A stretch of 64,000 bases of DNA from an uncultured Chloroflexia bacterium (GCA_963736805.1 CAVTQM010000058.1:150589-214588), one strand, 5' to 3'; counted from the stretch's first letter, positions 496-38,273 are shown. Notes: generated by a model from the letters alone, not told the origin. Made by a program: numbers and translations.

Positions 496-581
496 AACAT
501 AGAACTGATGAATTCATGATGTTTTTATAAGTCGATGTTATCAATTATTGGAATGAAGGTAAGGAACGATATCCTAATCCT

Positions 582-1685
582 ATGAGTCAAACAAATTGGC
601 GACATTTTGATTTTTGGTTACTAGGTGCGGTTGTCTTAATGACAATCTTTGGCATTACGATGATTCGCTCAGCCGTAGCTGGAAATATCGAATTAGAACA
701 AGCAAACCTTGTACAAAGGCAACTGATTTTTGCTATTATTGGTTTCGCAGTCATATTTATTGTTTCTATCATCGACTACCACCTGTGGGCTTCTATCATC
801 CGCCCTATGTATTACATAACAGTTATCTTTTTAGGCGCATTAACAGTAGCTGGACAGGCTTTATATGGTTCTGCACGTTGGTTTGATACAGGCGTGATAC
901 TTATTCAACCATCAGAAATTGCTAAAATTGTTGTCATTTTAGTGTTATCAGATTTCTTCGCAAGAAATTATGATAAACTCGATAGTCTTACCTGGATTGG
1001 ACGCAGTTTTTTATACACTTTAGGCATTGTTGTTTGGATTATTCTTCAACCCAATTTAAGCACATCATTGGTGATCCTGGCAATTTGGTTCAGCTTGCTA
1101 TGGGCAAGCGGATTAAAAGTAAAATACTTGCTCGCTTTTAGCGGGATAGCATTAGTCGCTCCGTTTGCCGCTTTTCCTTTATTAGCAGATTATCAAAAAC
1201 AAAGGATATTAAATTTCCTAATTTCTGACCCGAATGCAACACAGGGAGAAACCTATAATATTCAACAAGCTTTAATTAGTATTGGCTCAGGAGGATTATT
1301 AGGCAAGGGATATAACCAGGGAACACAAGTACATTTGAGATTTCTCAAGGTACGCTGGTCCGATTTTATATTTTCTGCAACTGCTGAGGAATTTGGATTA
1401 ATTGGTTCTGTCGTGATCATGCTTTTATTATTATTCATTATTTATCGCTGCCTGCGGGTAGCCAGATTAGCCCGAGATACATTCGGTGGTTTAATAGCAT
1501 ACGGAGTTTCGGTATTATTAGCCTTTCAGGGAATGGTAAATATTGGTGTAAATTTAAAACTATTACCTGCAACAGGACTACCTTTGCCATTTATTAGTTA
1601 TGGAGGCAGCTCATTGCTATCACTATTGCTTGGGATTGGATTGGTAGAGAGTGTAATATTGCGGCATAAACCGCTTGAATTTTAA
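582..1685 (+). CDS. rodA: SEDS-family peptidoglycan polymerase (RodA/FtsW/SpoVE family)
   Basis: 367-aa polytopic protein with typical family segments (PSEIAKI..., GLPLPFISYGGSS near the C-terminus). Its position right after PBP2 favours RodA over FtsW. Confidence 0.8.
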   Translation: MSQTNWRHFDFWLLGAVVLMTIFGITMIRSAVAGNIELEQANLVQRQLIFAIIGFAVIFIVSIIDYHLWASIIRPMYYITVIFLGALTVAGQALYGSARWFDTGVILIQPSEIAKIVVILVLSDFFARNYDKLDSLTWIGRSFLYTLGIVVWIILQPNLSTSLVILAIWFSLLWASGLKVKYLLAFSGIALVAPFAAFPLLADYQKQRILNFLISDPNATQGETYNIQQALISIGSGGLLGKGYNQGTQVHLRFLKVRWSDFIFSATAEEFGLIGSVVIMLLLLFIIYRCLRVARLARDTFGGLIAYGVSVLLAFQGMVNIGVNLKLLPATGLPLPFISYGGSSLLSLLLGIGLVESVILRHKPLEF

Positions 1686-1746
1686 TATGATCCAGAAATT
1701 ATCTAGACATTGCGCATAGACAATAAATTCCATTGGGAGTAACAAT

Positions 1747-3244
1747 TTGATAGAAGATAAACCGGTTCGTGTCCGTTTTGCACCATCACCGACTGGTCGA
1801 ACCCACCTTGGAAGCGGGCGTACAGCCCTCTATAATTATCTATTAGCCCGTCAAACCGGGGGAAAATTCATATTACGGATTGAGGACACAGATCAGAAGC
1901 GCTATGTACCTGGTGCTGAAAAAGAGCTGATCGACAGTTTACATTGGATGGGATTAGATTGGGATGAAGGTCCAGACGTCGGAGGATCGTATGGTCCTTA
2001 CTACCAAACCCAGCGAAAAGATATCTATGCTGAATATGCGTTGAAGTTGATCGATACGGGTCATGCATATTATTGTTTCTGCAGCCCTGAGCGTTTAGAC
2101 CAAGTACGCAAAGAGCAACAGAGCCGTAAAGAAAATCCACGATATGATGGTTTATGCCGTCGATTGGATCTCGAAGTTGCTAGGGCGAGAGCGATGACAG
2201 GCGAACGGTATGTTGTAAGATTTAAAGTGCCTGAAAGTGGTTCAGTAACAGCCCATGATCTATTACGTGGTGATATCACTGTGGATCATTCAGCTATAGA
2301 CGATCACGTTATCGTGAGATCGGATGGATTAGCGCTTTATCATCTGGCAGCTATGGTGGATGATCACCTGATGGAAATTTCGCATGTCATCCGTGGTTCT
2401 GAGTGGTTGTCGACATTCCCACTGCATGTCCTCATTATCCGGGCTTTCGGTTGGCAGGAACCCGAATTTGTGCATCTATCTGTTTTTCTTAAACCGAGCG
2501 GTAAGGGTAAGATGGCTAAAAGAGATGCATCACAGCAGATTCAAGACGGACATTCGATATTTATCAAAGATTTAGAAGGTTTGGGTTATATCCCAGAAGG
2601 GGTCATTAATTGGATTGCGTTAATGGGATGGAGCTACGATGACCGCACCGAATATTTTACTCTTCCGGACTTGGTGAATAAATTTAGTTTGGAACATTTA
2701 AATCCTTCACCAGCAGCCATCAATTTCACGAAGCTGGATTACTTCAATGGTCTGCACATCCGTAGTTTAACCAGAGAGGACCTTGCGCACAGACTTGCAC
2801 CCTTTATTGGCAATGCTGGGTATACACTTGATGAAGATGTTCTCTATCGTGCTATCCCTATCATTCGTGAGCGTTTGGTTACTTTGGATGATGTCATACC
2901 AGTCGCCGGCTTTTTATTTAAAGCTAATGTAATTCCTAATCCCAGACGATCTAATTGGTGATAATCTGACAACAGAACAGTCGATCAAAGTAGCAAGAGA
3001 AGTATTTAATATATTAGCAGCTCTGCCTGAGATTAACAAGGATGTTGCTGAACCCCCTTTAAGGAATCTTGTAGAAGGATTTGGACTAAAAGCAGGCCAG
3101 GTTTTTGGGATCATAAGAGTAGCTGTGACTGGCCAAAAGGTGAGCCCACCGCTCTTTGAAACAATGGAGATTATTGGAAAGGAAGAAGTTTTACGTCGAT
3201 TAAAAAATGCGATTGAATTATTAGAGCAGGCTGATCACCAGTAA
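1747..3244 (+). CDS. gltX: Glutamyl-tRNA synthetase, one frame break near 2941-2947
   Basis: TTG start. Class I signatures are present (RFAPSPTGRTHLGS; GKMAKR as the KMSKS variant). The 404-aa ORF stops at 2959-2961, but the conserved C-terminal part (..IRVAVTGQKVSPPLFETMEIIGKEEVLRRL..) continues in another frame to the TAA at 3242-3244. The frames join with a 1-nt change at the CCC run 2941-2943. Confidence 0.85.
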
Positions 3245-3261
3245 CAATCCATGCATCAGAC

Positions 3262-3290
3262 TGGACGTCAATGAATGGGCGTGGTAAAAT
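3262..3290 (+). promoter_or_regulatory. Possible sigma70-type promoter for tRNA-Gln
   Basis: TGGACG (3262-3267), a 17-nt spacer, then TAAAAT (3285-3290) with an extended -10 TG at 3282-3283, about 15 nt upstream of the tRNA 5' end. Confidence 0.35.
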
Positions 3291-3305
3291 TTTTCTGTTA
3301 ATCAC

Positions 3306-3379
3306 TGGGGGCTCGTCTAATGGTAGGACAGCAGACTCTGGATCTGTATGTAGAGGTTCGAATCCTTTGCCCCCAGCCA
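3306..3379 (+). tRNA. tRNA-Gln (anticodon CTG), CCA encoded
   Basis: Hand-folded cloverleaf. The 7-bp acceptor stem is TGGGGGC/GCCCCCA, the D arm is GTCT/GGAC, the anticodon stem is GCAGA/TCTGT with loop CTCTGGA (anticodon CTG), and the T arm is AGAGG/CCTTT with loop TTCGAAT. Discriminator G and CCA follow. Confidence 0.9.
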
Positions 3380-3385
3380 TAGGTC

Positions 3386-3415
3386 AAAACACCCCGTCAG
3401 ACCGGGGTGTTTTGA
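3386..3415 (+). terminator. Rho-independent terminator after tRNA-Gln
   Basis: Stem AACACCCCG / CGGGGTGTT (3388-3396 / 3403-3411) with a 6-nt loop, followed by a T run. Confidence 0.6.
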
Positions 3416-3434
3416 TAAATTTGGAGGTTTAAAA

Positions 3435-5138
3435 ATGACTGAAATTCCATCCACAACTCCTAACAACTTTATCCTTGAAGCTGTTGGTGAAGACAATAAA
3501 AATGGACGATTCGGGGGCAGGGTACATACCCGCTTTCCGCCTGAACCCAATGGTTATTTGCATATCGGCCATGCAAAAGCAATTTACATTGATTTTGGGA
3601 TCGCCCTTGAGTTTAATGGGAAATGCAACTTGCGTTTTGATGATACCAATCCTGTAAAAGAAGATGTGGAATATGTAGAATCAATCAAGGAAGATATCCA
3701 CTGGCTTGGGTATGACTGGGAAGATCGGTTATTCTTTGCTTCGGATTATTTTTCTCAGTTGTATGATTATGCGGTCCGATTGATCAAAAAAGGGAAGGCA
3801 TATGTTGATGACCTAAGCGCAGATGAAATCAGGGAGTACCGGGGAACACTGACTGAACCAGGGAAGAACAGTCCCTATCGCGATCGTTCGGTTGAAGAGA
3901 ATTTAAATTTATTCGAGCGTATGCATGATGGAGAATTTCCAGATGGTACGCGTGTACTTAGAGCAAAGATTGATATGGCGTCTGGGAATATGAATATGCG
4001 TGATCCGGTCATGTATCGCATCCTTCACTCAACCCATCACAGAACAGGTGATACGTGGTGTATATATCCGATGTATGATTTTGCACATGGACAGAGTGAT
4101 TCAATCGAAGGTGTTACCCATTCATTATGTTCTTTGGAATATGAGGACCATCGTCCTTTGTATGATTGGTTTTTAGATGAATTGGAGATATATCATCCAC
4201 GCCAGATCGAATTTGCGCGCTTGAATTTAAACTATACCGTGATGAGTAAGCGGAAATTATTAACCCTGGTGAAAGATAAGCATGTTCTGGGTTGGGATGA
4301 CCCTCGAATGCCAACTTTATCTGGATTACGTCGGCGTGGTTATTCACCAGTGGTTATCCGTAAGTTTTTAGATACGATCGGTGTTGCAAAACGTAATAAT
4401 GTTGTGGATATCGCATTATTAGAACATTTAGTACGCGAAGAATTGAATCTTAATGCTCCACGGGTGATGGGGGTATTAAATCCCCTGAAGGTAGTAATCG
4501 ATAACTATCCACCTGGACAAATTGAAGAACTTGAGGCGGTTAATAACCCTGAAGATCCAAGTGTTGGCACGCGAAAAGTACGTTTCTCTAAAGAAATCTA
4601 TATCGAAAGGGATGATTTTAAAGAAGAACCACCGAAAAAATTTTTCCGCTTAGCCCCTGGTAGGGAAGTGCGATTACGGTATGGTTATTTTATTAAATGT
4701 GTCGAGATTATCAAAGACGAAGGGACAGGTGAAATTAAAGAACTGCATTGTACCTATGACCCAGAGACACGCGGCGGCTATGCACCCGATGGACGAAAAG
4801 TGCAAGGCACATTGCATTGGGTTTCAGCCCAGGATGCATTAGAAGTCGAAGTGAGACTATATGATCGACTCTTTACAAAGGCTGATCTAAATGATTTGGA
4901 TGAAGGAATGGAATTTCTTGATTTTATCAATCCTGACTCATTACATATTAACAAGCACTGCCTTGTAGAAGCAAGCCTTGCACTAGCAACAACAGGGTCG
5001 CGATACCAATTTGAACGAGCAGGATATTTTATTGTGGATCCTGATTCTGCGCCGGGGAAACTTGTTTTTAATCGGATCGTCCCTTTACGGGATACCTGGG
5101 CAAAAATCGAAGAAGCTCAAAAGAATAGCGGGAATTAG
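3435..5138 (+). CDS. glnS: Glutaminyl-tRNA synthetase
   Basis: Intact 567-aa ORF with the HIGH motif (PNGYLHIGH) and VMSKR (KMSKS variant), and GlnRS-type N- and C-terminal domains. Confidence 0.9.
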
Positions 5139-5209
5139 GATTTCCAGGACTTCTTGGTATGGAATTTGTGTAGTTTGCCCTGCACTTAGGTAAGTAAAAG
5201 GAAGGTTTT

Positions 5210-7051
5210 ATGTGTGGAATTGTAGGCTACATTGGTCCTAAGAACGCAACCCCGATTATTCTGAATGGTCTTAAAAAGCTTGAATATCGGGGGTATGACT
5301 CAGCTGGATTGGCAGTCATCCAAAATGACCATATTGAGATTCGAAGAGACGTGGGGAAATTAAGCAATCTGGTAGACTTGGTCTCGGAAATTCCTGTAAC
5401 TGGTCATATTGGAATTGGGCATACACGTTGGGCAACGCATGGTGAGCCTAGTGCGCGAAATGCGCATCCACATATTGGAATGTCTGGGAATGTTGTGGTT
5501 GTTCATAATGGGATTGTGGAAAACTATCAGGAGCTACGGAGTGAACTTTTGGATGAAGGCGTCATCTTCAACTCGGATACAGATACAGAAGTGATTGTCC
5601 AGCTAGTAGAACGATACCAATCGACAGGTCTTGGATTGGTCGAAGCTGCCAAGAAAGCTTTGCAACAGCTAAAGGGTGCTCACGGAATCGTATTAATGTC
5701 ATCTCTTGAACCCGATAAGATCGTAGCAGCCCGGATCGGAAACGCTGGTGGGGTGGTTATTGGGATAGGTGAAAATGAAATGTTCATTGCATCTGATTTA
5801 CCAGCCATTCTGGAGCATACACGGAAAGTGGTATTTTTGGAATCACACCATATGGCAACCGTCACAGCTGATCGATTAACAGTTCAGACAATAGAAGGTA
5901 AAAACGTGGCGGTTAAGGAGCAAACGGTTTCTTGGGATCCTATTTCTGCAGAAAAAGGTGAATACCGGCATTTTATGCTTAAGGAAATTAACGAGCAGGT
6001 ACGGTCCCTGACAGATACAATTGCTGGACGGATTGATTTTGAGTCTGGGAACATAAAACTACCTGAGCTAAATCTTTCACCGGAATTTGCTCGGAAAATA
6101 TCAAAGATATATATTACCGCCTGCGGAACAGCTTCTCATGCTGGCATGATTGGTAAGATCCTCATCGAGCGGATTGCTAGGATTCCAGCCCAATTAGAAA
6201 TAGCATCAGAATTTCGATATGGCGATCCAATTATCGATCAGAATTCGGTGGTATTGGCTATCAGTCAATCTGGAGAAACAGCCGATACACTGGCTGCGAT
6301 GGAAGAGGGGCGCAGAAAAGGAGCAAAATTATGGTCGATTGTAAATGCGATAGGAACGCAAGCGATGCGCATAGCCGATGGATATATATCCATGCAGGCT
6401 GGTCCTGAAATTGGTGTCGCATCTACAAAAGCATTTACTGCTCCTATTGTCGACCTGTTTATGTTGGCAATCTTATTAGCCGATTTACGCGGGGTATTGG
6501 AAGATAAGAACAAACGTTTGTTGGTGGAAGGCTTATGTAAAATACCTGACCTGGTTGGGAAGTGTCTTGATCGTCAAAACCAAGTGGAAGAGGTTGCAGC
6601 TGTATTAAAAGATACTCGGAGCTGTTTATATCTTGGCAGGGGGATCAATATGCCTATTGCCTATGAAGGTGCGTTGAAACTAAAGGAGATATCATATATC
6701 CATGCTGAAGGATACCCAGCTGGAGAGATGAAACATGGACCGATCGCACTTATTGACCGTGAAATGCCTGTGGTTGCTTTGGCTCCGCATGATCCATGGT
6801 ACGAAAAAATGATCAGCCAGATTGAACAGGCGAAAGCACGAGGTGGGACCGTTATCGCGGTGGCAACTGAAGGAGACAATATAATTCAAACGCTTGCAGA
6901 TCATGTTCTTTGGATTCCGGATTCTCTATGGTATTTAAGCCCGGTGTTAACAGTTATACCCCTACAATTGCTCGCTTACTATATTGCGGCAAAACGTGGA
7001 TTAGACGTCGATCAACCAAGGAACCTTGCCAAATCCGTAACTGTTGAATAG
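5210..7051 (+). CDS. glmS: Glutamine--fructose-6-phosphate aminotransferase
   Basis: Intact 613-aa ORF with the MCGIVGY N-terminal nucleophile start, tandem SIS domains and the characteristic C-terminal ..AKSVTVE. Confidence 0.95.
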   Translation: MCGIVGYIGPKNATPIILNGLKKLEYRGYDSAGLAVIQNDHIEIRRDVGKLSNLVDLVSEIPVTGHIGIGHTRWATHGEPSARNAHPHIGMSGNVVVVHNGIVENYQELRSELLDEGVIFNSDTDTEVIVQLVERYQSTGLGLVEAAKKALQQLKGAHGIVLMSSLEPDKIVAARIGNAGGVVIGIGENEMFIASDLPAILEHTRKVVFLESHHMATVTADRLTVQTIEGKNVAVKEQTVSWDPISAEKGEYRHFMLKEINEQVRSLTDTIAGRIDFESGNIKLPELNLSPEFARKISKIYITACGTASHAGMIGKILIERIARIPAQLEIASEFRYGDPIIDQNSVVLAISQSGETADTLAAMEEGRRKGAKLWSIVNAIGTQAMRIADGYISMQAGPEIGVASTKAFTAPIVDLFMLAILLADLRGVLEDKNKRLLVEGLCKIPDLVGKCLDRQNQVEEVAAVLKDTRSCLYLGRGINMPIAYEGALKLKEISYIHAEGYPAGEMKHGPIALIDREMPVVALAPHDPWYEKMISQIEQAKARGGTVIAVATEGDNIIQTLADHVLWIPDSLWYLSPVLTVIPLQLLAYYIAAKRGLDVDQPRNLAKSVTVE

Positions 7052-7052
7052 T

Positions 7053-8496
7053 TTATTCTGAATGATACGAATGCATCAGCCTTGAGATAACGAATTCACC
7101 TCTCGTTAGCAATTCCTCCTGATCATCAGGATACGATGGATTATTAAGCAGCTCCAATGTTCGTTCACGTAGTAATCGATTGGGTTCGAGAATGTTAGAT
7201 TCTTGCCATTTTTCAAGGCTCATTCTTGGGAAGATATTGCTGGAAAGATAGGCATTTTTAAATATTTTCATGGTCTGAGGGGAGGAAAGATAATTACCTC
7301 CAATACCCATTTTCTTTATCTGATCGAAATTAATTGTTTCATCATTTACTTCAAAACCCCTGGTAAATTGCCGGGATTGTTCGATGATCTCATTGGCGTA
7401 AACAACCAGGTTGGGAGAAAAAACTTTCGAACCATGAATTCCACCTACAAAGGGTGCTAACCCTGCTTTCCCCAAACAGCACGTCAAATGATTAATCGTA
7501 AGGGTTGGAGCCGAGATTAGATCTGCTCCCCAACCATTGGAACTACCCGATGTACCAGCATGGGGAATTTGGTAATGATCCATCATTTCTGCACAAGCAA
7601 TATTTAATAACATTGTTTGAGGATCATAAAAATCCACCATCATTTTCATATCAAAAAATGCGGGCTGGCTTCCTAAAATAACCGGGGTTCCTGGTTGGAT
7701 TAGTTGGCTGAATACCAAACCGGCTAATAATTCTGAATTAAGGAGTGTTAATATACCTGCAGAGGTGATTGGCGTTGATACGCCTGCCATACCATAATTG
7801 GAAAAGATCAATGGCAAGCCTCGGTCGATCGAAGAAAGCATGTTCTCTGCCGTTGCCTTATTGAATACCAGGGGAGTGACAGGATTAAAGTATGGAATTA
7901 CAAATGGTTTTGTAGAGAGATTTCCAATAAGCTGATCTAGTAAATTTAAACAAGGAACGAATTGATTCTTATCTGATACCAGGATAATTAATGGTTTTTC
8001 TGTTCCGGCCACCATTTCCAGGACGGCAAGCAGATCTGCCTGGTGCTGTTTAACATTTCGGATAATGCCAATCGTTGAGATAATATCATAAGATGAAAGC
8101 ATGTTTCCCAAGCCAACAGCAGAGCGCATGTTTTCCCGCGTGAATGGCAAAATTTCTCCAGTTTCTGGTGATTCATAAAATAGGTTTGTCACTCCGATAC
8201 CGAAGTGTGTTTTCTCTTCACCCAAACGGAAAGCCAACTCTCTTTTTCGATTGTATATATCTATAAAAGATGGAACTTGTTGAATTGCCCATTCAACAAG
8301 TATCAGGATGAAAAAGAACATGCTGATTATCTAAAATTGTTGCCCCATTTGATTTTTTCAGTCGCATTAAGGCATTTTCGGAATCTATTCTTACGCCAAC
8401 TTCAGCTAATATTTTCAATGAATAATCATGCACCTGTGCAATCGCATCAGGCGATAAAACCTGGATCAAAGGCTGAACATGCACGGAAGGTGACAT
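7053..8496 (-). CDS. MttB-superfamily (trimethylamine methyltransferase-like, non-Pyl) corrinoid-dependent methyltransferase, paralogue 4, one frame break
   Basis: Overlapping ORFs 8293-8496 (N-terminal 67 aa) and 7053-8321 (422 aa) lie in different frames (end coordinates mod 3 are 0 and 2). Together they give about 480 aa with an MttB-like N-terminus and core. Confidence 0.8.
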
Positions 8497-8508
8497 CTTG
8501 GTGTGAAT

Positions 8509-9696
8509 TTAGAAACCGCCGTTGCGTAAAAACCTTAGCGAAGCCTCTGCCAGGATGACTGCTCCATAAGGTAAACAGAGATCGTTAATATCAAACCTGG
8601 AATTATGGTGTTCACGTTCATCCCCTTCGACCATACTACCGAGTGAAAACATTGCACCAGGTGCAAGTTCTGAGAAACAACCAAAGTCCTCTGCACCTAA
8701 ACCTTGCGGAGGTGTACCAACATTATCTTCCCCTAATATATCAATCGCAGTTTGCCTAATTAACTCCGCTGCTTTCTCATCATTAATCATCGGAGGGGTA
8801 CCTATTTCAAAATTTAGCTTGTAATCACCCCCCAGTGTTTTTGCAACTTCAAAAGCCCTTTTTATCTCCGCGTGTATCCTTTCCTGTACCTTGGGGTCTG
8901 TATACCTTAATGTTCCAAGGATATCAACTTTATTGGGGATCACATTTTCAGCAAAACCAGCATTTATGGAACCGATGCTAACAACTGCAGAGTCAAATGG
9001 ATTAAGTTTACGTGAGACAATCCCATTTAATGCAAGGATGACATGAGCTGACAGGTAAATAGGATCTATAGTCTCATGAGGCCTAGCTCCATGACCGCCC
9101 ATTCCAAGAATGGATGCCCGGAATGTATCTACACCTCCGGAGGCAGGTCCCGCTCCGATATGGATCTGACCGACGGGGACATGCGCAGATACGTGTAATG
9201 CTAATACCAAAGCTACACCTCCGTCCATAGCTCCATCCTGTATCATACGCGGTGCACCGCTGATACCCTCATCATCAGCAACTTCCTCGGCGGGTTGGAA
9301 GAGGAAACGAACAGTTCCGGGAAGTTTCTCTTCTTTGGATAATAATTCGGCGACTCCCAGCAAGATTGCTGTATGCGCATCATGACCACATGCATGCATA
9401 ACCCCCGGAATTTTAGATACATAATCCGTCTGATTATCCTCCTGGAGAGGTAGTGCATCCATATCTGCACGGATAGCAACAATGGGTAGACCCTGTCCTA
9501 ACTCACCCACCACACCCGTTTTACCGACATTTTTCCTGACTCTGCATCCAAGTGATTCCAATACCTCAATTACCTTCGAGGAAGTTCTATGTTCTTGAAA
9601 GCCGAGTTCTGGATATTTATGAAAATCCCGTCGATATTCTTGCATTTTTATTTGAAGGTCCATCGCATCCTTAATCATAATCACCTCATCCATCAA
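8509..9696 (-). CDS. M20D-family amidohydrolase (aminoacylase / hippurate hydrolase-like)
   Basis: Intact 395-aa ORF with typical M20D segments (FHKYPELGFQE, RADMDALP, GVMHACGHDAH). There is a 4-nt start/stop overlap with the upstream MttB gene (9693-9696). Confidence 0.8.
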   Translation of the reverse strand: MMDEVIMIKDAMDLQIKMQEYRRDFHKYPELGFQEHRTSSKVIEVLESLGCRVRKNVGKTGVVGELGQGLPIVAIRADMDALPLQEDNQTDYVSKIPGVMHACGHDAHTAILLGVAELLSKEEKLPGTVRFLFQPAEEVADDEGISGAPRMIQDGAMDGGVALVLALHVSAHVPVGQIHIGAGPASGGVDTFRASILGMGGHGARPHETIDPIYLSAHVILALNGIVSRKLNPFDSAVVSIGSINAGFAENVIPNKVDILGTLRYTDPKVQERIHAEIKRAFEVAKTLGGDYKLNFEIGTPPMINDEKAAELIRQTAIDILGEDNVGTPPQGLGAEDFGCFSELAPGAMFSLGSMVEGDEREHHNSRFDINDLCLPYGAVILAEASLRFLRNGGF

Positions 9697-11113
9697 CCAC
9701 GTGTTTTTAATACATTATCTGCTTCTCGGAGGATTTCATCCAATTCCTGTTCCTGCCCAATGCTTAACGGATCCACATGATGATTATTAATTATTTGATT
9801 CGCTTCAGCTTGTGCTCTTTCAGCCATTCCAGAACGACCATTCAGCTCCCACGTCTCCCATGAACCTCGTTCAGCTAATGCTGTCAGTAGAACTTCTCCA
9901 CTCCGCAAGTAGCGTAGGGTGTGTTTTTGACCCAGGAAGTTGTGTGTAGTTTTCATTGCAGCTGAGATCACATCAACAGCCATTGAATCGTCATTTACAC
10001 TAAAACCATTCCTTATACGCCTAACACTCGCAGCGATTTCATTATCACACACAATTTGTGCAAATGAACCCATTACACCAGCTTCCATCTCACCAATACC
10101 AGAAAGCTCATCTGCACCCGCCAAAGCAGGAATAATCGCATTAAGCGACCGTTCAAAGCCGTTTTGAATATCCAAAGTATGCGAATTTGTTGAAAAACCA
10201 TAAACATTAACCGGTAATCCGTAATAATGGCCAATCTGAACCGTGGCAGCGGATGCTAGACCCAATTCAACCCCACCCCAAACGGATATTCCCGTACGGG
10301 GTTCCATCATTACCAACCGCCCACAATAAATAATTGGCAAACCTGGATGAACCAATTGGGCAAGCACAATTGATGCCAGCAATTCGGCGTTTTGTTGAGT
10401 AACTCCACCTGCTATGGAGAAAGGTGCGGTTGTTCCTATGGTGGGGCAGGGGAGAGGAGCAAAAGGAATATTATTTCGGGCGATCTCAATGATTGCTGAT
10501 GCACTAGTCGGCGGGAAATCCTAAAGGACTTACTGGAGAAACACTCAATGAGAATACTTCATTGGGTGGACCGATAACAGACGCTAATTGGATGGCAAAT
10601 CGCACTTCTTTAGCGGTTTGGACACCAGGTCCTTGGAGAGGCTTGGTAGTATGGGGGATGGCATACCGGTACATTGCCAAGGACATTAAATGGCCAGGAA
10701 CATCCTGGGGGGTGAAAAATGGAGTGATGGTAGTAACACCCTCCAGAGCATCGAGAAGTCGAGTGCAGTCTTGAAGATCCTTGAGGCTAGCCTTACGGCG
10801 AGTTCCAGAACCAGCATCAAAAACATCACGTGCTCCACCAAGATTGTGCCAATGCAGGCGTGTCGTCTCCCAGTATTTTTTCTGTGCCACCTCTACCACG
10901 GATGCATACTTTTGTGGTAGATTTTGCAACCTCTTGCTCTACAAGCCACTCAGGAAATAGAATTCTATCGTTGACAACAATTGCCCCTGCTCCAGTTAAT
11001 ATCTCGCGTGCTTCAGGGTGGGTAAGGGTTATACCAATTTCAGCTAATACTCGCAGGCTGGAAATATGGATTGCTTTGACATCTTCATCAGTCATGACCC
11101 TGAATTCATGCAT
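9693..11113 (-). CDS. MttB-superfamily methyltransferase, paralogue 3, two frame breaks
   Basis: Three pieces lie in three different frames: 10826-11113, 10504-10929, and 9693-10382 plus its M-less upstream extension. Joined, they read as one MttB-like protein of about 470 aa. Confidence 0.75.
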
Positions 11114-11238
11114 GGGTTTCTCCTGATATATTTATTTAATGATATGTATATTATCTAATTGTTTCTTGAATGTCATTAATTGTTTTGGAGAGGCGGAATA
11201 TCTACACCTCTCCAAAACGGTATTCTCAAATTTATTGT

Positions 11239-12708
11239 TTATCGATCCAGGTTTGGTAATCTATCCAATCCAGCATTATGTGCATGGATTTTCACCAAAT
11301 TATGAAGCTCTTTGACCTGATCATCTTGTAAATTGGGTAATTGATATTGATCCAACAGGAATTTAACCTGAGATTTGGCACGTGCAAGGGTATCCAGAGA
11401 CCCATCCTGGTGCCATCCACGGATCGAATCTCGATCGAGGACTTTCGATGGGAGATATTGCTCTTGAGAGAACAATTCGCGGGTAATTTTTTGTTTTAGA
11501 AAATCGCCTTTATAATTGATGCCTTCAAACATGGCTGATGCAAGTGTCTGAGTTGGGGTATGCATTCCAGATAACAGCCGTTTTGCCATGGAAACAATTT
11601 CTGCATCAATTACTAGTTTTTCCAGGCTGAAGCAAGCCAGAAAATCCAGCATACCTGCGCCTGAGATCATATTAACACCAGCCAAAGCGCCAACAATTGC
11701 AGTGATTCCACTTTCTAAGCCAGCCTGGGCATCGATAAGTTTTGAATCACTGGCACATAGATACGTATGCGTGGGCAACCCAAGGGATTTACCTACCTGT
11801 GTATAGGACGCATCAATCATTGCGGTCTCGATTGCACCCATGGGTGTTGTTCCCTTACGCATATCAAAGATAGCCGGAGCACCTCCCCATACAATGGGTG
11901 AACCTGGTTTTGCCAGCTGGTGAATCGCTATACCGCTTAGACATTCTGCTGCATGTTGAACAACAGAACCTACCAACGTTACTGGAGCTGTAGCTCCAGC
12001 CAACGGCATGGAAACCATCTGTGCTGGAACACCAGCTCGGGCTAACTCGATCAGATTTTGTGCGCCGAAATTGCTCCAAATCAAGGGGGGAGAAGGACAG
12101 ACATCAAAGACTGCTTGAGGTTTTTTCGCTAATGCCTCACGACCACCTGCGAATAACGACAACATATCGATCATCACCTGCAGGGTGGGGATGGCAAAAG
12201 CACCCGTGACGATAGGCTTGGATGAATAGAGCAATACGAGGTAAAGACGGAATAAATCGCTGATCGGCTTAGGGATTTCGTTGCATATTACCGAGGTCGA
12301 TTGAGCATCGAACTGGGGAAGCATTTCAGTAAGCTTTATGATCCTTACCAAATCATCGGTATAAGATGGACGATGTTCATTTGTATCTGGATCAAGGATA
12401 TGGACCCCAGAAGATCCTGGATCAAAATGAACGGCATTGCCCCCATAGGTAACTTTTTGTTCACCATATCTATCAAACAAGTAGAATTTCTTTGGTACAG
12501 ATTCTAATGCATGATGAACAATATTTTCTGGTATATGGACTACTTCAGCCTCTCTATCGATCCTTGCTCCTGCATCTTTAAGTAATTGGATAGCAGCAGG
12601 GGATTGAACCTTGATCCCAGGGTTAATCAAAAGCTGAAATGCTTCATCTAATATATTATTTACCAACTCATCCGAAAGAAGCGATATAGATGGCTGCATT
12701 GAGTTCAC
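11239..12708 (-). CDS. MttB-superfamily methyltransferase, paralogue 2 (intact)
   Basis: Uninterrupted 489-aa ORF of MttB-family length and sequence character, with no internal stop codon, so it is non-Pyl. The stop of paralogue 1 overlaps its start (12705-12708). Confidence 0.85.
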   Translation of the reverse strand: MNSMQPSISLLSDELVNNILDEAFQLLINPGIKVQSPAAIQLLKDAGARIDREAEVVHIPENIVHHALESVPKKFYLFDRYGEQKVTYGGNAVHFDPGSSGVHILDPDTNEHRPSYTDDLVRIIKLTEMLPQFDAQSTSVICNEIPKPISDLFRLYLVLLYSSKPIVTGAFAIPTLQVMIDMLSLFAGGREALAKKPQAVFDVCPSPPLIWSNFGAQNLIELARAGVPAQMVSMPLAGATAPVTLVGSVVQHAAECLSGIAIHQLAKPGSPIVWGGAPAIFDMRKGTTPMGAIETAMIDASYTQVGKSLGLPTHTYLCASDSKLIDAQAGLESGITAIVGALAGVNMISGAGMLDFLACFSLEKLVIDAEIVSMAKRLLSGMHTPTQTLASAMFEGINYKGDFLKQKITRELFSQEQYLPSKVLDRDSIRGWHQDGSLDTLARAKSQVKFLLDQYQLPNLQDDQVKELHNLVKIHAHNAGLDRLPNLDR

Positions 12709-14157
12709 TCTTTCTCAACCGAAGCAATGATTTTCTTTAATTCTAAAGAAACTGTCCTGTCTAGCGGCTGTGGTTGGTGGGTGGAGAGAATCTGTCTGGC
12801 TTTCTCAAGAGCCCAATCACTGCCATCATCCTGTTTCTCTTCCCAAACGTTATAGGGACGACGATCCATGAATTGGGGAATAAAAATATCGCGCATGTGT
12901 TTCAAAGTGTGCTTTTGACTTAGGAAGTTTCCACCCGGACCAACATTGCGAATCACATCGAGAGCCAAACTTTCATCATCCACAACAATTCCCTGCATGA
13001 CTTTATGGATGATCGAGAAGATCTCGCAATCCATTAACATTTGCGCATAAGACCAAATACGACTGCCGTGTAATAAGCCAGCACCCAACAACATATCTGA
13101 CATGACCACGCTTGCCATGAATGTGGAAAGGCTGTTCTCAACACCGGCATGCCAATTCGGTTCTTTTGCTCCAGTAGCGAAGGAACCCATGGAGAGTGGT
13201 ATATTGTAGAAATCAGCGAGTTTATTTTGAGCAGCACCGAATAGAAAATCTTCTGGTCCTCCACCCGTATAAGAACCAGTTCTCAGGTCTGATGCTGTTT
13301 GGGCAGCCGCATAAAATACCGGTGCACCTGGTGAAGCCAGTTGGATTAAAGCTGTGGCGCTTATGACTTCTGCATTACCTACAACTAAATTGCCTGCCAG
13401 AGTGGCAGGACCGGTTGTAAGGCATGCTGCCATCGTCATAAAACCAACGGGTAAACCTGCCTCAGCACCCATTAATGCTGCATCCACACTACCACCATCC
13501 TGACCAAGTGGTGGAGCAGTACATTGCATGATCGAAAGTAATGGTCGATTTCGTAATTCTGCTTTTCCACCTGCTATGGTAGCTGCCATTTCAATAGCAA
13601 TCCGAGCTTCTTTTTCATTATAGATACTCTCGGTTTGGGTATGCTTCGTGGAATTTTCCCAAATGGCACGCAATTCGTGTAATCCACGGGTTTTTGCTGG
13701 ATAATCCTGCGCAGAGACAGCCACCCAATGAAAGGCAATTTCTTCTAACGCGTCTCCAACCCGGGCGATATCTGCAACATCCTGCCAACAAGACATGCGG
13801 CGCTTACCTGAATGAATATCCAGGACTTCTACACCACAGCCATCAGTTCCTAAGATATACATGGTTCCCATCCAATGGTAAATCCTGTTCGGGAAAACGT
13901 GCTGCCAGGTTATATTTTGGAGGGGCAAGTTTCAATGCGTCTTCAATAATATTCCCAGGTACTTTTACGATAGATGTAGTTCTGTCAATTTGAGCACCGT
14001 GAGCTTCCCAAATGTCTAAGGCTCGTTTTGATGGGAAGCGAACTCCAGTTGTTTCAATGATATCGAGGGTGGCCGTATGAAGGCGTAAAATTTCTTCAGG
14101 ACTTAGGATATCAAGGCTTAATTTTGGGTTTGTAATGGATTTAATTTTACCGGTCAT
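12705..14157 (-). CDS. MttB-superfamily methyltransferase, paralogue 1, one frame break
   Basis: ORFs 13843-14157 (N-terminal 104 aa) and 12705-13928 (407 aa) overlap in different frames. Together they give about 484 aa and are MttB-like throughout. Confidence 0.8.
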
Positions 14158-14175
14158 ATAATTCCCTGATAAAAA

Positions 14176-14826
14176 TTAAACACCCAAAAGCTGCTTTGCT
14201 ACACGGGCTGCCCCAATGGCATCCTCGCTGTATCCATCTGCACCGATTTGTTTTACCCACTCCTGGGTTACTGGTGCACCCCCAACCATGACTTTGACTT
14301 TTGCTCGCATACCAACATCTTCAAGAGCTTCAATAACGTCCTTTTGATGCACCATGGTGGTGGTCAATAATGCACTCATCGCAACAATATCTGCATTTAC
14401 TTCGCGGGCTTTTTCAACCACTTTCATGACAGGAACATCTACACCCATGTCAAAAACCTGAAAACCAGTTGCAGATAGCATCGTGCCAACTAAAGTCTTA
14501 CCAATTTCATGAATATCACCTTCAACGGTGCATAAGACAACTTTACCAAGCATTGTTCGTTCCGTGCCACGTCTCGCAAGTTCTGGTTCCAATACCGCAA
14601 CAGCCGCTTTCATGGCTTCGCCAGCCATTACTAGTTCTGGTAAAAACATCATGCCACAGCTAAATTGATCACCAACGAAATTAACCCCAAGAACGAAGCC
14701 TTTGTTGATCGCGTCAAGGGGATCCATACCCAGATCGATTGACTGTTGTGCAAGCTCGGCTGCTTTTTCTGATTCACCTTCGGTTATGCTCTGTGCCATA
14801 GCCTTGAAGATTTCTTCTGTTTCCAT
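14176..14826 (-). CDS. Cobalamin-binding corrinoid protein (MtgC/MttC/MtbC-like)
   Basis: 216 aa with an N-terminal helical cap plus a Rossmann B12-binding domain. It carries the DxHxxG motif (EGDIHEIGKT), then SALLTTT and VMVGGAP. Confidence 0.85.
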   Translation of the reverse strand: METEEIFKAMAQSITEGESEKAAELAQQSIDLGMDPLDAINKGFVLGVNFVGDQFSCGMMFLPELVMAGEAMKAAVAVLEPELARRGTERTMLGKVVLCTVEGDIHEIGKTLVGTMLSATGFQVFDMGVDVPVMKVVEKAREVNADIVAMSALLTTTMVHQKDVIEALEDVGMRAKVKVMVGGAPVTQEWVKQIGADGYSEDAIGAARVAKQLLGV

Positions 14827-14849
14827 TTTTGTCTCCTTGTTTTTATGGT

Positions 14850-15605
14850 TTATTGATTAGAAATCATTGGATCGATTAGTTTTTCAACTTCGCGGATTGA
14901 TTCTCCAGAGATATCAAGGTACATTTCAATTTCGTTGCCCAGGTTTCGGATGTGGTTGGTGACTTGTAACGAGGCTTCTTGTGAATCATTATTTGCCAAA
15001 GCATCAATGATGGCTTTATGCTCCAGGTATTCGCGTTTCAAGCTGATCTGCAGGAGCTCAGGATGTCGGAACATATACTCATATAACATCCAATCAGGAA
15101 ATGAATTCGTTGCCATTTCATATAATTTGCTTAATAACGGACTCTGTGCTGAATTTACAATTCCAGAATGGAATTCCTTATTTAATTGACGCAATTCGGA
15201 CATATCTTCGAGTGAAAGTAAATTTGCGGTTTTTTCGACGATCTCTAATAATATTTTTACTTCATCCGGTTGAATAATCTTTGCACTGATACGGACGGCC
15301 ATATTTTCTAATACCAAACGCATTATAAATGCATCCACGATTTCCTTGGGTTCTAGTTTTGGGACACGAACACCACGGAATGGGACCCGTTCTGCTAAAC
15401 CTGACGCTACTAATCGGTCAAAAGCTTCCCGGACTGGGGTTTGACTAACACCCAACTGGGTAGAAATATCTTCTTGACGAAGCCAATCACCTGCAGAAAA
15501 TTTACCTGCGATGATCTTGCTGTATAGGTAATCGTAGACTTCATCCGTGAGGGAGCGCTTACGGAGAATTTCACTGCTGTCGATAGTTGAATTCGTTTGT
15601 TCCAT
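14850..15605 (-). CDS. GntR-family transcriptional regulator (FadR/FCD subfamily)
   Basis: 251 aa with an N-terminal winged HTH (LRQEDISTQLGVSQTPVREAF..L) and a C-terminal all-helical FCD-like domain. It is the first gene of the MttB/corrinoid operon. Confidence 0.8.
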   Translation of the reverse strand: MEQTNSTIDSSEILRKRSLTDEVYDYLYSKIIAGKFSAGDWLRQEDISTQLGVSQTPVREAFDRLVASGLAERVPFRGVRVPKLEPKEIVDAFIMRLVLENMAVRISAKIIQPDEVKILLEIVEKTANLLSLEDMSELRQLNKEFHSGIVNSAQSPLLSKLYEMATNSFPDWMLYEYMFRHPELLQISLKREYLEHKAIIDALANNDSQEASLQVTNHIRNLGNEIEMYLDISGESIREVEKLIDPMISNQ

Positions 15606-15705
15606 TTATAAATAATATACTATTGTAATAAGTTGAATTCATATTTCTATAATAGATATATTATATATTATATATTATAATTTGTGAAGAGAACAGACTA
15701 ATAAA

Positions 15706-16303
15706 TTAACCAATTAAGAAAATACATTCTGCAAACCCATTATTATTAATGATCTGTTTCTCAATTTGCCTAACTTTTGTGTCCAAATAATGTTCGAGTA
15801 AAGATATATCCAACTGGCATAGGACTGGATGGTCATTAAGTATTGCCTGATATGGACAATGTCCTAAAATAATGCGAGGGTGATTGTAATGAGCCTCCCA
15901 GTGTGCCTGATAGTTCATGCGATTGAGTGATTGGATTGTTGAGTATAGACGACGGGTTGGGTTGATCCCAGAAGATTTGAAATCAGTTGCCATTTGGATA
16001 GCTATTTGATCTAATAATTGGGTATGATCATCAGATCCTTGATTGAATAATATTGAAAGCAACACATTGGAGAGCTTGTCCAGATTGTGTTGATCAATTT
16101 GTGATGTGGAGGCGTATATTTGAGCTGGACGGCCTCGAGTTGTTTTTTTGCCCGATAACTTTAACATTACCCTGTTCAGTTAAAATTGCAAGGTGGTGGC
16201 GAATATTTGATTGGGTTACACGAAATACTTTGCTTATTTCTTCGACAGTAGTGCTCTGCTGCTCGACAATGAAATCAAGGATTTTTTGACGTGAGTGTGT
16301 CAT
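15706..16303 (-). CDS. ArsR-type HTH transcriptional regulator with C-terminal domain, one frame break
   Basis: The N-terminal piece (16094-16303) carries the HTH (EEISKVFRVTQSNIRHHLAILTEQG). The C-terminal piece (15706-16167) starts with the ..TTRGRPAQIY motif typical of this regulator class. The frames switch inside a T7 run at 16143-16149. Confidence 0.6.
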
Positions 16304-16426: not shown

Positions 16427-17104
16427 ATGAGTCAGGACATAATTAATCCTGGATATGAAATCCCACCTGAGATGCAAGGGCAAGTAACTATCACAACCCT
16501 GGATAAGATCTATAACTGGGGACGACGCTCATCTGTGTGGCCGATGATGTTTGGTTTAGCATGCTGTGCGATCGAAATGATCTGTTCAGCAACAAGCCGT
16601 TTTGATTTCTCGCGTTTCGGTATGGAGATAATGAGACCCAGTCCTCGACAAGCCGATCTCATGATAGTTGCAGGAACCGTAACAAAAAAGATGATTCCAC
16701 AGATAGTTAGATTGTATAATCAGATGCCTGAGCCGAAATATGTTTTAGCAATGGGTGCTTGCGCCTCCGGAGGGGGACCATTTAAGGAAGGTTACAATGT
16801 GGTTTCAGGTGTGGATGAATTCTTACCTGTGGATGTATATGTAGCAGGTTGCCCACCAACTCCTCAAGCATTATTAAATGGTTTTATAACATTGCATAAA
16901 TTGATCGATAAGCAATCTATAAAGACTGTTCGATGGTACCAAAAGGGACTGGATACACCATTACCCGTTCCAGTTCTTGGACCAGATCTCATGGATACTA
17001 GGCAGTATCGAATTATAAAAGAGTATACGCAAAATAAGCTGATAACCGAACAAGCTAAAGCCCAATCCATGGCTGATCAAGCTGATTTAGATAATGCAGG
17101 ATAA
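16427..17104 (+). CDS. nuoB: NADH-quinone oxidoreductase subunit B
   Basis: The N2-cluster cysteines are present ([25 protein letters not shown]). 225 aa. Confidence 0.9.
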
Positions 17105-17133
17105 GTTACCAACGAATCGCACATTTTTGGAGC

Positions 17134-18882
17134 ATGTCCATGAATGATCAAAACATTGCACTTGAATCTGACCTAATGTATATCTTTCCTGAGATTCTTA
17201 TTCAAGACGGGCGACCTGGTTGTGAAGGTTATATTGTAAAATCCGAACACTTATCTTCTTTTATGCAGAGGCTTCGGGATGATTTAGGCTATGATTATTT
17301 GTCTTCTGTTACTGGGGTGGATTATTTTCCTGAAGGGTTCATGGAGGTTGTATATCACATTCGGAAATCGATTGGTGGGAATCCCTTGGTGATAAAGGCA
17401 CAAATGGATCGAGAAAATCCGGTGATTGCATCCCTGGTTCCAATCTATCCAGGTGCTGAATTTCAGGAAAGGGAAGCCTGGGATTTATTCGGGATTAAAT
17501 TTGAAGGGCACCCCGATTTACGCAGAATTCTCATGTGGGAAGGTTTTTCAGGGCATCCTCTTCGTAAAGATTGGAAAGAAGGTTATTACGAAGAGGAATT
17601 TAAGCCTTACAAAAGCCGATGGCCTGTTGGCCATTATAAAAGTCTTGAAGACAAACATCCGCTGGGAACTAATGTTGACTATCCAGCTGGTTTTAACCCA
17701 GAAAGCTGGGTTCCTGAGCCAGAGGTAGCCTTATATTCAGGTTTAGGCAGGATAGAACGAAAAGATGAAGAAACAGGTATCGGAACTGAACAAGTGATTG
17801 TAAACATGGGTCCTCAACATCCATCAACGCATGGTGTGTTTCGGATGGCTGTAAAACTGGATGGGGAAACAATTGTCGGTCTTAAACCTGTAATGGGTTA
17901 CCTTCATCGAAATCATGAGAAGATTGGGGAACGAAATACTTTTCTGGGAATCATGCCGTATACAGACCGATTGGATTATTTCAACTCGATGAGTAACAAT
18001 TTCGGATACGCCTTAGCAGTTGAAAAACTAATGGGGATTAACCCACCCGAACGTGCAGAATATATCCGCATAATGATGGCTGAATTAACCCGACTTGTTA
18101 ATCATCTGGCATTATTTGGTTTTTTATTAAATGATCTAGGTGCATATTTCACTCCTTTCATATATGCGTTTGAAGAACGTGAGCTGATCTTGGATATATT
18201 TGAAGCGGTCTCCGGTTCTAGAATGATGTGTAATTACCACCGATTTGGCGGGGTGGCGCGCGATTTACCAACCGGGATATTAGAAAAGATCAGCGACCTT
18301 GTCCTTGATCGGCTGCCTCGGAAAATTGATGATCTCGATTTATATATTACGAAAAACGAAATTATTCGCCATCGGACTGAAGGAGTTGGAATTATGACTC
18401 CCGAGCAAGCAATTGCATACTCAGCGGTTGGACCGGTATTGCGCGCCTCAGGCGTGCCATATGACTTGCGACGAGCTCAGCCTTATAGTATATATAATCG
18501 GTTTGATTTTGATGTTGCAGTTCGATACCATGGCGATGTATATGATCGGTATTTAGTTCGCTTGGACGAGATGTATCAAAGCCTGAGGATACTCAAACAA
18601 GTAATAGAAAATATTCCTGAGGGTCCAATTCAAGCAGGAAAACCACAATATCAGGTAAGGGTACCTGCTGGCGAGGCATACGGTTGCGTAGAAGGACCTA
18701 AAGGTGAGTTAGGATTTTATGTTATATCCAATGGAAAACCAAATCCCTGGCGGTATCATATACGTGCTCCGTCATTTATAAACCTAACCTCTCTTGAAAG
18801 TATATGCGTTGGAAACAAAATAGCCGATGTCGTAGTTATTCTTGGCTCAATTGATATTGTTTTAGGCGAAACGGATAGGTGA
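17134..18882 (+). CDS. nuoCD: NADH-quinone oxidoreductase fused subunits C and D
   Basis: 582 aa. The N-terminal NuoC part has [19 protein letters not shown]. The NuoD part has [21 protein letters not shown], and C-terminal ..VLGETDR. There are no NiFe-type CxxC motifs. Confidence 0.9.
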
Positions 18883-18889
18883 GTGATGC

Positions 18890-19516
18890 ATGGCTGACCA
18901 AAAAGATGATTACATGTATGGATTGGGGATTCTGAAGGGTCTTGGTTTAGCTTTCAGACATTTCCTTGAGACCTATATTGATGATATCCGACATTGGGGT
19001 AGGCGTTACAAGACCTCGGAGGGTATTGCTTATCGAGCGAGTAAGGATGTCAGCGGAATTTTCACTGTTCAATATCCAGAAGAGAAAGTCCCTGTTCCAG
19101 AAGAATTCAGGTATTTACCATTTCTAATCTTTGAAGAAAAAGATGGAGAAAAACAGTACCGCTGTACCTCTTGTGGTATTTGTGCCAAAGTATGCCCACC
19201 CCAATGTATCTGGATTGTTCGTTCAACAGATCCCAACACTGGAAGACCAATTCCTGATCCAGCTGAGTATTATATTGATATTGATATGTGCATGAATTGT
19301 GGCTATTGTGCAGAATATTGTCCATTTGATGCAATCAAGATGGACCATAATTATGAATTAGCTTCATATACACGCGCCAAAAATATATATGATAAAGCCA
19401 TGCTTGGACAGCCAATATCTTATTATGAGTCAATCCGACCGATAAATTATCATCGTGAAGAATCCGCCAGAATAGAAGCAGAAACGCAGAGAGCAATGAG
19501 GAAGACAGTTGCGTAG
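18890..19516 (+). CDS. nuoI: NADH-quinone oxidoreductase subunit I-like 2x[4Fe-4S] ferredoxin subunit
   Basis: Two CxxCxxCxxxCP motifs (CTSCGICAKVCP, CMNCGYCAEYCP). It has a long N-terminal segment and an insert between the motifs. Confidence 0.8.
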   Translation: MADQKDDYMYGLGILKGLGLAFRHFLETYIDDIRHWGRRYKTSEGIAYRASKDVSGIFTVQYPEEKVPVPEEFRYLPFLIFEEKDGEKQYRCTSCGICAKVCPPQCIWIVRSTDPNTGRPIPDPAEYYIDIDMCMNCGYCAEYCPFDAIKMDHNYELASYTRAKNIYDKAMLGQPISYYESIRPINYHREESARIEAETQRAMRKTVA

Positions 19517-36257: not shown

Positions 36258-36287
36258 TCCTCCTCTGAAAGGTTCGTTACTTGATTT

Positions 36288-38261: not shown

Positions 38262-38273
38262 CAATACTTGCTC

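Follow-up and report, generated by a model that had tools for sequence, protein, structure and literature searches.

A widely conserved Anaerolineae operon predicted to couple four divergent non-pyrrolysine MttB-family methyltransferases to a single corrinoid protein

The MttB superfamily has thousands of members, six of which have a known physiological substrate (PMC12155760), and the substrates of the remainder are an acknowledged open question (PMC8604678). In Eubacterium limosum, the corrinoid protein MtqC and the methyltransferase that unloads it (MT2), MtqA, serve three substrate-side methyltransferases (MT1s), MtpB, MtcB and MtyB (PMC8604678), with RamQ as the activase (PMC8604678, PMC12155760); the concept of several MT1s acting on one corrinoid protein is already established in that organism (PMC8604678). 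In the E. limosum choline pathway, MthK-MthB-MthC-MthA, a kinase encoded in the cluster makes phosphocholine for an MttB member (PMC12155760). The glycine betaine system of Desulfitobacterium hafniense consists of MtgB (PDB 2qne/9yce), the corrinoid protein DSY3155, MtgA and the RamA homologue DSY3152 (PMC13080624), and MtgB-MtgC-MtgD of Ruegeria pomeroyi is an aerobic system with specificity for glycine betaine and a link to methionine synthesis (PMC12478193). Here we analyse a stretch of 64,000 nucleotides from an uncultured bacterium (CAVTQM010000058.1:150589-214588; hereafter the window, 64 kb), in which one corrinoid gene is followed by four MttB-family genes without pyrrolysine (non-Pyl). 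Judged by gene content and conservation, this locus is a predicted corrinoid-dependent methyl-transfer operon of an Anaerolineae (Chloroflexota) bacterium, and it is widely conserved.

Like the E. limosum system, the locus combines several non-Pyl MT1s of putatively different specificity with one corrinoid protein, and it would likewise depend on a Pterin_bind-type MT2 acting on tetrahydrofolate (THF) and on an ATP-dependent activase. In contrast to E. limosum, where the MT1s come from a genome with ~40 further homologues, the four MT1 genes share an operon with the corrinoid gene; an M20 aminoacylase-type gene is embedded among them, MT2 and activase genes are not nearby, and the host appears to be a Chloroflexota fermenter rather than an acetogen. 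As in D. hafniense, a non-Pyl MT1 gene adjoins that of the corrinoid protein, and the enzymes belong by sequence to the same fold family, with 25-32% identity over the full length. There are, however, four MT1s and not one, the glycine betaine tetrad of MtgB is absent, and MT2 and activase genes are not clustered with the MT1 genes in the window. The choline pathway offers a parallel in that an accessory enzyme encoded in the cluster modifies a compound for the MttB member; that enzyme is a kinase, whereas the accessory enzyme here is an M20 amide hydrolase, joined in related loci by an S9 acylaminoacyl-peptidase-like enzyme. The R. pomeroyi system is modular too, and its partner methyltransferase serves other functions as well, but its corrinoid domain is phylogenetically distinct. 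New in our comparison are four uncharacterised, widely conserved Anaerolineae orthogroups whose predicted pockets are non-canonical, the placement of their genes in one operon with those of a putative carrier and regulator, and the consistent association with genes assigned to peptide transport, an aminoacylase and a peptidase for blocked peptides. The gain lies in new members and a substrate lead, not in a new mechanism.

We propose the following scheme, to which, taken as a whole, we assign a probability of about 0.6. MttB-A, -B, -C and -D would each demethylate a different methylated nitrogen compound and deliver the methyl group to the Co(I) state of the corrinoid protein (CoP) whose gene heads the operon. 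The resulting methyl-Co(III) protein would be unloaded onto THF by a Pterin_bind-type MT2, and a RACo/RamA-type ATP-dependent activase would rescue the corrinoid protein from the Co(II) state; both partners would be encoded elsewhere in the source genome, whereas some relatives have their genes inside the operon. The M20 enzyme, translationally coupled to MttB-C, may prepare or finish an amide-linked substrate, and the GntR/FCD protein may recognise a 22-nt site that precedes its own gene, controlling the operon in response to substrate or product.

The locus occupies positions 7053-15677 of the minus strand and consists, in order, of the 22-nt motif, the GntR/FCD gene, the corrinoid gene, MttB-A, MttB-B, a spacer with a hairpin, MttB-C, the M20 gene and MttB-D (Table 1). 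The minus-strand coordinates that a first-pass annotation had given for the GntR, corrinoid and four MttB genes were confirmed, as were its 125-nt gap and 4-nt overlaps; its list of genes was right as far as it went, with the M20 gene between the third and fourth MttB genes overlooked. MttB-B starts with GTG and overlaps the MttB-A stop by 4 nt, and the M20 gene, 12 nt away from MttB-D, overlaps the MttB-C stop by 4 nt. The proteins MttB-A, -C and -D were analysed after deletion of one base at each of four frame breaks, which are treated below.

Table 1. Features of the MttB operon and its surroundings in the 64-kb window (positions counted from the first letter of the window)
Feature	Coordinates	Strand	Length	Details
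ArsR-type winged-helix regulator	15706-16303	-	~198-205 aa	PF01022 after repair; broken near 16145 (extra A in poly-A)
22-nt AT-rich motif TAATATATAATATATAATATAT	15656-15677	-	22 nt	~50 nt upstream of GntR start
GntR regulator with FCD (FadR-type) effector domain	14850-15605	-	251 aa	PF00392, PF07729 (Pfam)
Corrinoid (B12-binding) protein	14176-14826	-	216 aa	PF02310 (B12-binding), PF02607 (B12-binding_2, cap); DxHxxG = EGDIHEIG
MttB-A, non-Pyl MttB family	12705-14157	-	483 aa once repaired	PF06253 E 5e-84, profile 21-494 of 500
MttB-B, non-Pyl MttB family	11239-12708	-	489 aa, unbroken	PF06253 E 1.7e-90
B-C spacer	11114-11238	-	125 nt	Hairpin, promoter-like site, AGGAG ribosome-binding site
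MttB-C, non-Pyl MttB family	9693-11113	-	472 aa once repaired	PF06253 E 2.4e-68
M20 amidohydrolase, aminoacylase type	8509-9696	-	395 aa, unbroken	PF01546, PF07687 (Pfam)
MttB-D, most divergent non-Pyl MttB member here	7053-8496	-	480 aa once repaired	PF06253 E 1.5e-58

All four MttB proteins matched PF06253 over about positions 21-498 of 500, with scores of 282, 304, 231 and 198 bits for A, B, C and D, respectively (gathering cut-off 25). In phmmer comparisons with the solved TIM-barrel members MttB (7xcl) and MtgB (2qne/9yce), all four aligned over ~440-470 residues with E values of 1e-24 to 1e-70. The best solved relative of MttB-B was the pyrrolysine-containing (Pyl-)MttB of Methanosarcina barkeri (7xcl, with MttC) at 224 bits, and the scores of B, A (240 bits) and C (174 bits) against this protein were slightly above those against MtgB. 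None of the four reached the equivalog cut-off of TIGR02369 (525 bits; A 441, B 395, C 357, D 221), and NCBIfam provided no other specific model for the MttB proteins. They differ from M. barkeri MttB in this lower score, in the lack of UAG/pyrrolysine, in the bacterial host, and in the likely acceptor, which would be THF and not coenzyme M. The corrinoid protein, with B12-binding and cap domains and a DxHxxG motif, adjoins the MT1 genes, as expected of a three-component system, and it scored 236 bits against TIGR02370, 'methyltransferase cognate corrinoid protein' (cut-off 215; NCBIfam). It is the predicted methyl carrier common to all four MttB enzymes.

The four paralogues align with one another nearly over their full length (~440-470 residues) at 22-27% pairwise identity, and not, as had been noted by eye, at the level of N-terminal motifs only. 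Phylogenetic relations were assessed in a neighbour-joining tree (468 columns, 200 bootstraps) with MtgB, Pyl-MttB and the Sinorhizobium 4yyc protein as references, these three being the PDB relatives of the MttB proteins; MtcB, MtpB, MtyB and MthB enter the comparison through the published statement on R312 discussed below. A, B, C and D each formed a clade of their own with their orthologues (200/200 bootstraps), and a clade uniting A, B, C and D was found in 0/200. Neither A with MtgB (0/200) nor D with MtgB and 4yyc (0/200) was recovered, MtgB and 4yyc themselves grouping in 200/200; the relations of the four orthogroups to Pyl-MttB were unresolved in this tree. Identity was 22-29% between groups, 25-32% to MtgB and 22-31% to Pyl-MttB. 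By these distances the four paralogues are anciently diverged, the separation among them equalling that from MtgB or Pyl-MttB.

The residues at the substrate pocket were read from an ungapped, well-anchored alignment block, with sampled orthologues of A (14), B (14), C (14) and D (8). MtgB contacts glycine betaine through Y97, F356, R312 and H348 (PMC13080624). The acid group is bound by R312, which every characterised non-Pyl enzyme keeps (MtpB, MtcB, MtyB, MthB); each of these acts on an acidic substrate (PMC13080624). In contrast, this Arg is absent from all four proteins of the window, where Ser (A), His (B), Asn (C) and Ala (D) occupy its position, and no Arg occurs within three residues on either side; M. 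barkeri MttB likewise has no Arg there. At the positions of MtgB Y97, MtgB R312, M. barkeri Pyl334, MtgB H348 and MtgB F356, in that order, the signatures were G/S/A/L/S in A, S/H/A/S/L in B, G/N/S/S/G in C and V/A/S/P/S in D, without variation in the sampled orthologues (A 14/14, B 14/14, C 14/14, D 8/8). The MtgB tetrad Y97/R312/H348/F356 was absent from all four proteins and from every sampled orthologue. An in-frame UAG at the Pyl334 position was absent in all four, where Ala (A, B) or Ser (C, D) is encoded; the only TAG in the pyrrolysine region is the product of an inserted base at 10505 and is absent from the related contig L081. From the alignment, the four proteins are assigned as non-Pyl and not MtgB-like, each with its own conserved pocket. 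Together with the tree, in which the four do not join a single characterised enzyme (the outcome that the first-pass annotation had named as fatal to its multi-substrate idea), these group-specific invariant residues bear out the earlier description of the genes as old, functionally distinct copies.

An alternative interpretation would make all of these genes MtgB-type glycine betaine methyltransferases. In its favour, the proteins are non-Pyl, the genes adjoin that of a corrinoid protein, and the score of A against MtgB 9yce is 238 bits; in addition, survey papers equate non-Pyl mttB with mtgB, and wetland metagenome bins have been so read (PMC6081815). Against it stand the missing tetrad in all four proteins and the sampled orthologues, the lack of any grouping with MtgB (0/200) and the finding that no betaine-type transporter cluster recurs among the 160 related loci described below. 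We consider a glycine betaine system highly improbable.

MttB-B also gave a marginal match to the Rfam model PYLIS_3 (11655-11752, minus strand; 39.4 bits against a threshold of 38). This match was rejected as a functional element: there is no UAG, the model itself has few base pairs, and the match, which begins at the codons that correspond to the pyrrolysine position, tracks the conserved coding motif SD(A/S)K..DAQAG. It most likely reflects homology of the coding sequence with true mttB.

Related loci show how the genes are combined. A scan of species-representative genomes with MttB-B gave 460 relatives, of which the best 80 loci were kept; these best 80 of 460 derive almost all from Chloroflexota/Anaerolineae metagenome-assembled genomes (MAGs) and show 65-86% identity. 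A metagenome scan added 80 loci. Synteny was counted over these 160 loci, 79 of which have at least 8 kb downstream of B. A protein search with MttB-C gave 2465 proteins at E<=1e-30, with only close orthologues returned. The whole layout of the window, flanking nuoB and glmS included, is reproduced in L001, L002 and L082, and in L083-L085 and L089 as far as the contigs reach. CoP-A-B forms a constant core, with A directly followed by B in 114 loci and the corrinoid gene by A in 90; there is one corrinoid gene copy per locus, and the GntR gene lies directly upstream of it in 46 related loci. Around this core the content varies. Among the 79 long loci, MttB-C was present in 48, M20 in 43, an S9 peptidase in 41, an SBP_bac_5 peptide-type ABC transporter in 22, MttB-D in 13, a Pterin_bind MT2 in 13 and a RACo activase in 8. 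Recurring orders were S9 followed by C (39 loci), C by M20 (40), M20 by MT2 (12) and MT2 by RACo (5). The S9 and transporter genes of relatives are inserted exactly where the window has its 125-nt B-C spacer, and M20 is kept in the operon even in loci without C. The variable presence of C, D and a fifth paralogue around a fixed CoP-A-B core indicates independent modules. These combinations fit independent substrate modules that would feed one corrinoid protein, and the multi-substrate reading put forward in the first-pass annotation gains support from the separate orthogroups, the distinct pockets and the modular combinations alike.

Further MttB paralogues occur in the locus of L013 (15605-17080), L014, L020 and L076, with a fifth orthogroup beside PotABCD-type transporter genes. 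In another locus, L032, four to five extra MttB-like genes lie upstream of GntR (56-5900).

The tight coupling of A and B admits other interpretations. The paralogues, or at least A and B, might act in turn on one polymethylated compound, taking it from the tri- to the di- to the mono-methyl form. The 4-nt overlap of the A stop with the B start, the A-B adjacency in 114 loci and the single corrinoid protein for all would suit such a sequence of steps, and successive methylation states would require differing pocket signatures, as observed. In 15 loci, however, A is lacking and B comes directly after the corrinoid gene, and the presence of C in 48/79 and of D in 13/79 long loci implies that the steps are not obligatorily linked. 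Moreover, characterised non-Pyl members take one methyl group only, and pyrrolysine-type activation is considered necessary for tertiary and secondary amines (PMC13080624, PMC8604678). Sequential demethylation therefore appears unlikely to us, if still worth considering. The same coupling and adjacency would be expected if A and B formed one heteromeric enzyme, which would leave fewer than four independent specificities; solved family members are oligomeric, and their C-terminal arms complete the active site of the neighbour (PMC13080624). The 15 loci with CoP-B and no A speak against this arrangement, as do the 25% identity between A and B and their different invariant pocket residues, and we judge it to be distinctly improbable.

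Four substrate-specific MT1s on one corrinoid protein would still require an MT2 and an activase. Among the stop-to-stop open reading frames (ORFs) of at least 70 aa in the 64-kb window, Pfam searches detected no Pterin_bind, MtrH, URO-D or RACo domain, and no BCCT, OpuAC or ABC-transporter domain. The absence of these partners, pointed out previously, is true of the window but is not a peculiarity of the system, since relatives encode Pterin_bind and RACo proteins in the operon. A Pterin_bind (PF00809) MT2 gene lies within the orthologous operon of 15 related loci, and RACo activase genes (PF14574, PF17651, Fer2) within that of 8; the operon of L041, for instance, reads GntR-CoP-A-B-M20-MT2-RACo. 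The occurrence of the missing partners in the same operon of relatives ties the locus, by gene context, to a predicted THF-directed corrinoid methyl transfer. A separate gene of ~225 aa was observed beside RACo or after B in three loci (L024, 4460-5200; L069, 16702-17379; L077, 13101-13778), and its product resembles, by eye, the activation domain of B12-dependent methionine synthase.

As assembled, MttB-A, -C and -D are spread over two, three and two frames, respectively, by four single-base insertions at 13858 (A), 10859 and 10505 (C) and 8302 (D), and B is unbroken. Four breaks in three genes could signify a pseudogene array in which three of the four MttB genes are truly frameshifted and the system is dying, an alternative that had been raised for this locus. 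Each break, however, consists of exactly one inserted base, and codon-level DNA alignments with the orthologues of L001, L002 and L004 are gap-free save for that extra window base. The metagenome contig L081 (Ga0031656_10000022, Joint Genome Institute) is 93.2% identical to window positions 1235-13872. Its B, C, M20, D and GlmS genes each give one full-length alignment, and its A copy, partial at the contig end (residue 96 onward), is unbroken through the 13858 site. Over 12.6 kb the two sequences show just eight indels, each a 1-nt insertion in the window: the four named above, two in the B-C spacer (11167 and 11133), one upstream of glnS (3435) and one in gltX (2944).

The breaks are also not confined to the array. 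At least 11 further window genes carry the same +1 breaks, and Pfam matches were split in Mrp, KorA, two thiolases, MtnA, SMC, glycerate kinase, a class-I methyltransferase, HypE, HypF and TrmFO. Well-supported breaks outside the array shift the frame by +1 in 15/15 cases, as does that of the ArsR-type gene; example sites are 2944, 16145, ~20540, ~25500, ~29500, ~39640, ~43530, ~47660, ~52560, ~53340, ~55940, ~59850 and ~60900. Other long-read MAGs have the MttB operon genes broken at other positions. Intact orthologues were found for MttB-A at 87-97% identity, for MttB-C at 75-97%, and for MttB-D at 95% in L081 and 63-71% in L001, L002, L082 and L085. The ratio of nonsynonymous to synonymous substitution rates (dN/dS) 3' of the breaks, measured against L001, was 0.04-0.24, and these parts of the MttB genes remain under strong purifying selection. 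Because housekeeping genes share the +1 breaks and relatives are intact, the window-wide pattern looks like insertion-biased assembly error, and decay specific to the MttB array is very unlikely. As far as sequence alone allows, the orthologue alignments, L081 and the dN/dS values refute the decaying array, which we find hardly credible.

Programmed +1 frameshifting, suggested by the uniform +1 direction and by one CTT-AGG-A site, was ruled out: the sites have no common motif, three of the eight insertions peculiar to the window fall between genes (a pair within the B-C spacer and one upstream of glnS), and the extra bases are absent from L081 and all orthologues. The only window gene with a canonical CUU-UGA-C site is prfB (37160-~38260, minus strand; site region 38150-38340), which has CTT TGA C after codon 22 and is the sole gene whose frame change is expected to be genuine. 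A multi-pass membrane protein at 34645-36926 (minus strand), which gave no Pfam match at E<=1e-5, is divided into five or six ORFs by four +1 breaks, one -1 break and one in-frame stop.

The gene context provides a lead to the substrates. The M20 protein scored 356 bits against TIGR01891 (cut-off 154), and its nearest solved relatives, the indole-3-acetic acid (IAA)-amino acid hydrolase ILL2, YxeP and N-acyl-glutamine aminoacylase, are all N-acyl-amino-acid amidohydrolases. For the S9 protein of related loci, the nearest solved relatives are the acylaminoacyl peptidases 5l8s, 4hxe, 7px8 and 1ve6. An S9C peptidase and an M20 aminoacylase form the classical pair that degrades N-terminally blocked peptides, as with mammalian APEH and ACY1. 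The transporters associated with the operon in relatives are of the Opp/Dpp type, or of the PotABCD type alongside the fifth MttB paralogue. In addition, B is followed in 15 loci by a gene resembling that of lysine-2,3-aminomutase, and 8 loci have a divergent class-III aminotransferase gene upstream of the corrinoid gene. Because the R312-type Arg is absent and because of this gene context, the substrates are probably not classical betaines, and the context points toward amino-acid- or peptide-derived methylated nitrogen compounds.

A more specific proposal would be a new substrate class, namely N-methylated amino acids, N-terminally methylated 'blocked' peptides, or methylated lysine and other basic amino acids released from peptides. 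We advance it as a speculative lead with low odds; it follows from the absent Arg, the M20 aminoacylase, the S9 gene beside C, the Opp/Dpp/PotD transporters and the aminomutase and aminotransferase neighbours. Literature on Anaerolineae MttB, on trimethyllysine with corrinoid and on MttB with peptidase yielded survey-level mentions only, and no such system was reported in the papers searched. A second M20 amidohydrolase of the TIGR01891 subfamily, with 41% identity to the operon M20, is encoded at 22712-23926 (plus strand), just upstream of 2-oxoacid:ferredoxin oxidoreductase genes.

Several observations weigh against the scheme of four substrate-specific MT1s served by one carrier. MT2, activase and transporter genes are found nowhere in the 64 kb, and frame breaks interrupt three of the four MttB genes as assembled. 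The R312-type Arg is missing from all four enzymes, whose chemistry could accordingly differ from quaternary-amine demethylation. The tight coupling of A and B would also fit a two-step or heteromeric arrangement, and the phylogenetic comparison covers MtgB, Pyl-MttB and 4yyc as its only references.

With regard to regulation, the 22-nt motif overlaps a promoter-like TTCACA-17-TATAAT sequence (15688-15660; 11/12 sigma-70-like match). It occurs once in the window and had 0 matches in 100 shuffles. The exact motif is found in seven loci of the compact clade, and with up to four mismatches it lies upstream of GntR in 39/43 loci, giving the consensus TTATATAT(A/T)AT(A/G)TATAATATAT. Its 22 positions are nearly invariant and its flanks unconserved, also in far more G+C-rich genomes. 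The site is probably an operator and promoter of the operon, a function inferred from this pattern. A FadR-type T.GT..AC.A palindrome was not found upstream of GntR; the search exposed the 22-nt motif instead.

The B-C spacer contains a stable hairpin just past the B stop (~11183-11217, TTTTGGAGAGG...CCTCTCCAAAA), and L081, L002 and L085 likewise have a stable hairpin there, with differing sequence. The spacer also has a weak promoter-like site (11176-11148) and a strong AGGAG ribosome-binding site before C. The operon may be expressed as two segments, CoP-A-B and C-M20-D, which would match the evolutionary modules. Next to the 22-nt motif, the ArsR-type gene keeps its position in L001, L002, L004, L082-84 and L089, and the intact L002 orthologue also yields PF01022. 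Whether this gene is part of the system is uncertain, as it adjoins the operon only in the compact clade.

Elsewhere in the window, a complete hypABFCDE hydrogenase-maturation cluster lies at 52951-58724 (minus strand), with HypE and HypF broken by insertions. Together with the nuo genes (16427-19516) and korAB, this predicted gene set fits an anaerobic fermentative lifestyle. A tRNA-Gln(CTG) gene (3306-3379, plus strand) is located immediately upstream of the glutaminyl-tRNA synthetase gene (3435-5138, plus strand), with GltX just before it.

The Anaerolineae MAGs with this locus come from many environmental metagenomes. Anaerolineae abound in sediments, wetlands and digesters. Methane is formed from methylated amines in these habitats, and methyl-stripping bacteria there would compete with methylotrophic methanogens. 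The locus and its relatives supply the four MttB orthogroups, a candidate operator, its putative regulator, the corrinoid protein, an MT2 and an activase, that is, a complete kit for substrate discovery in vitro.

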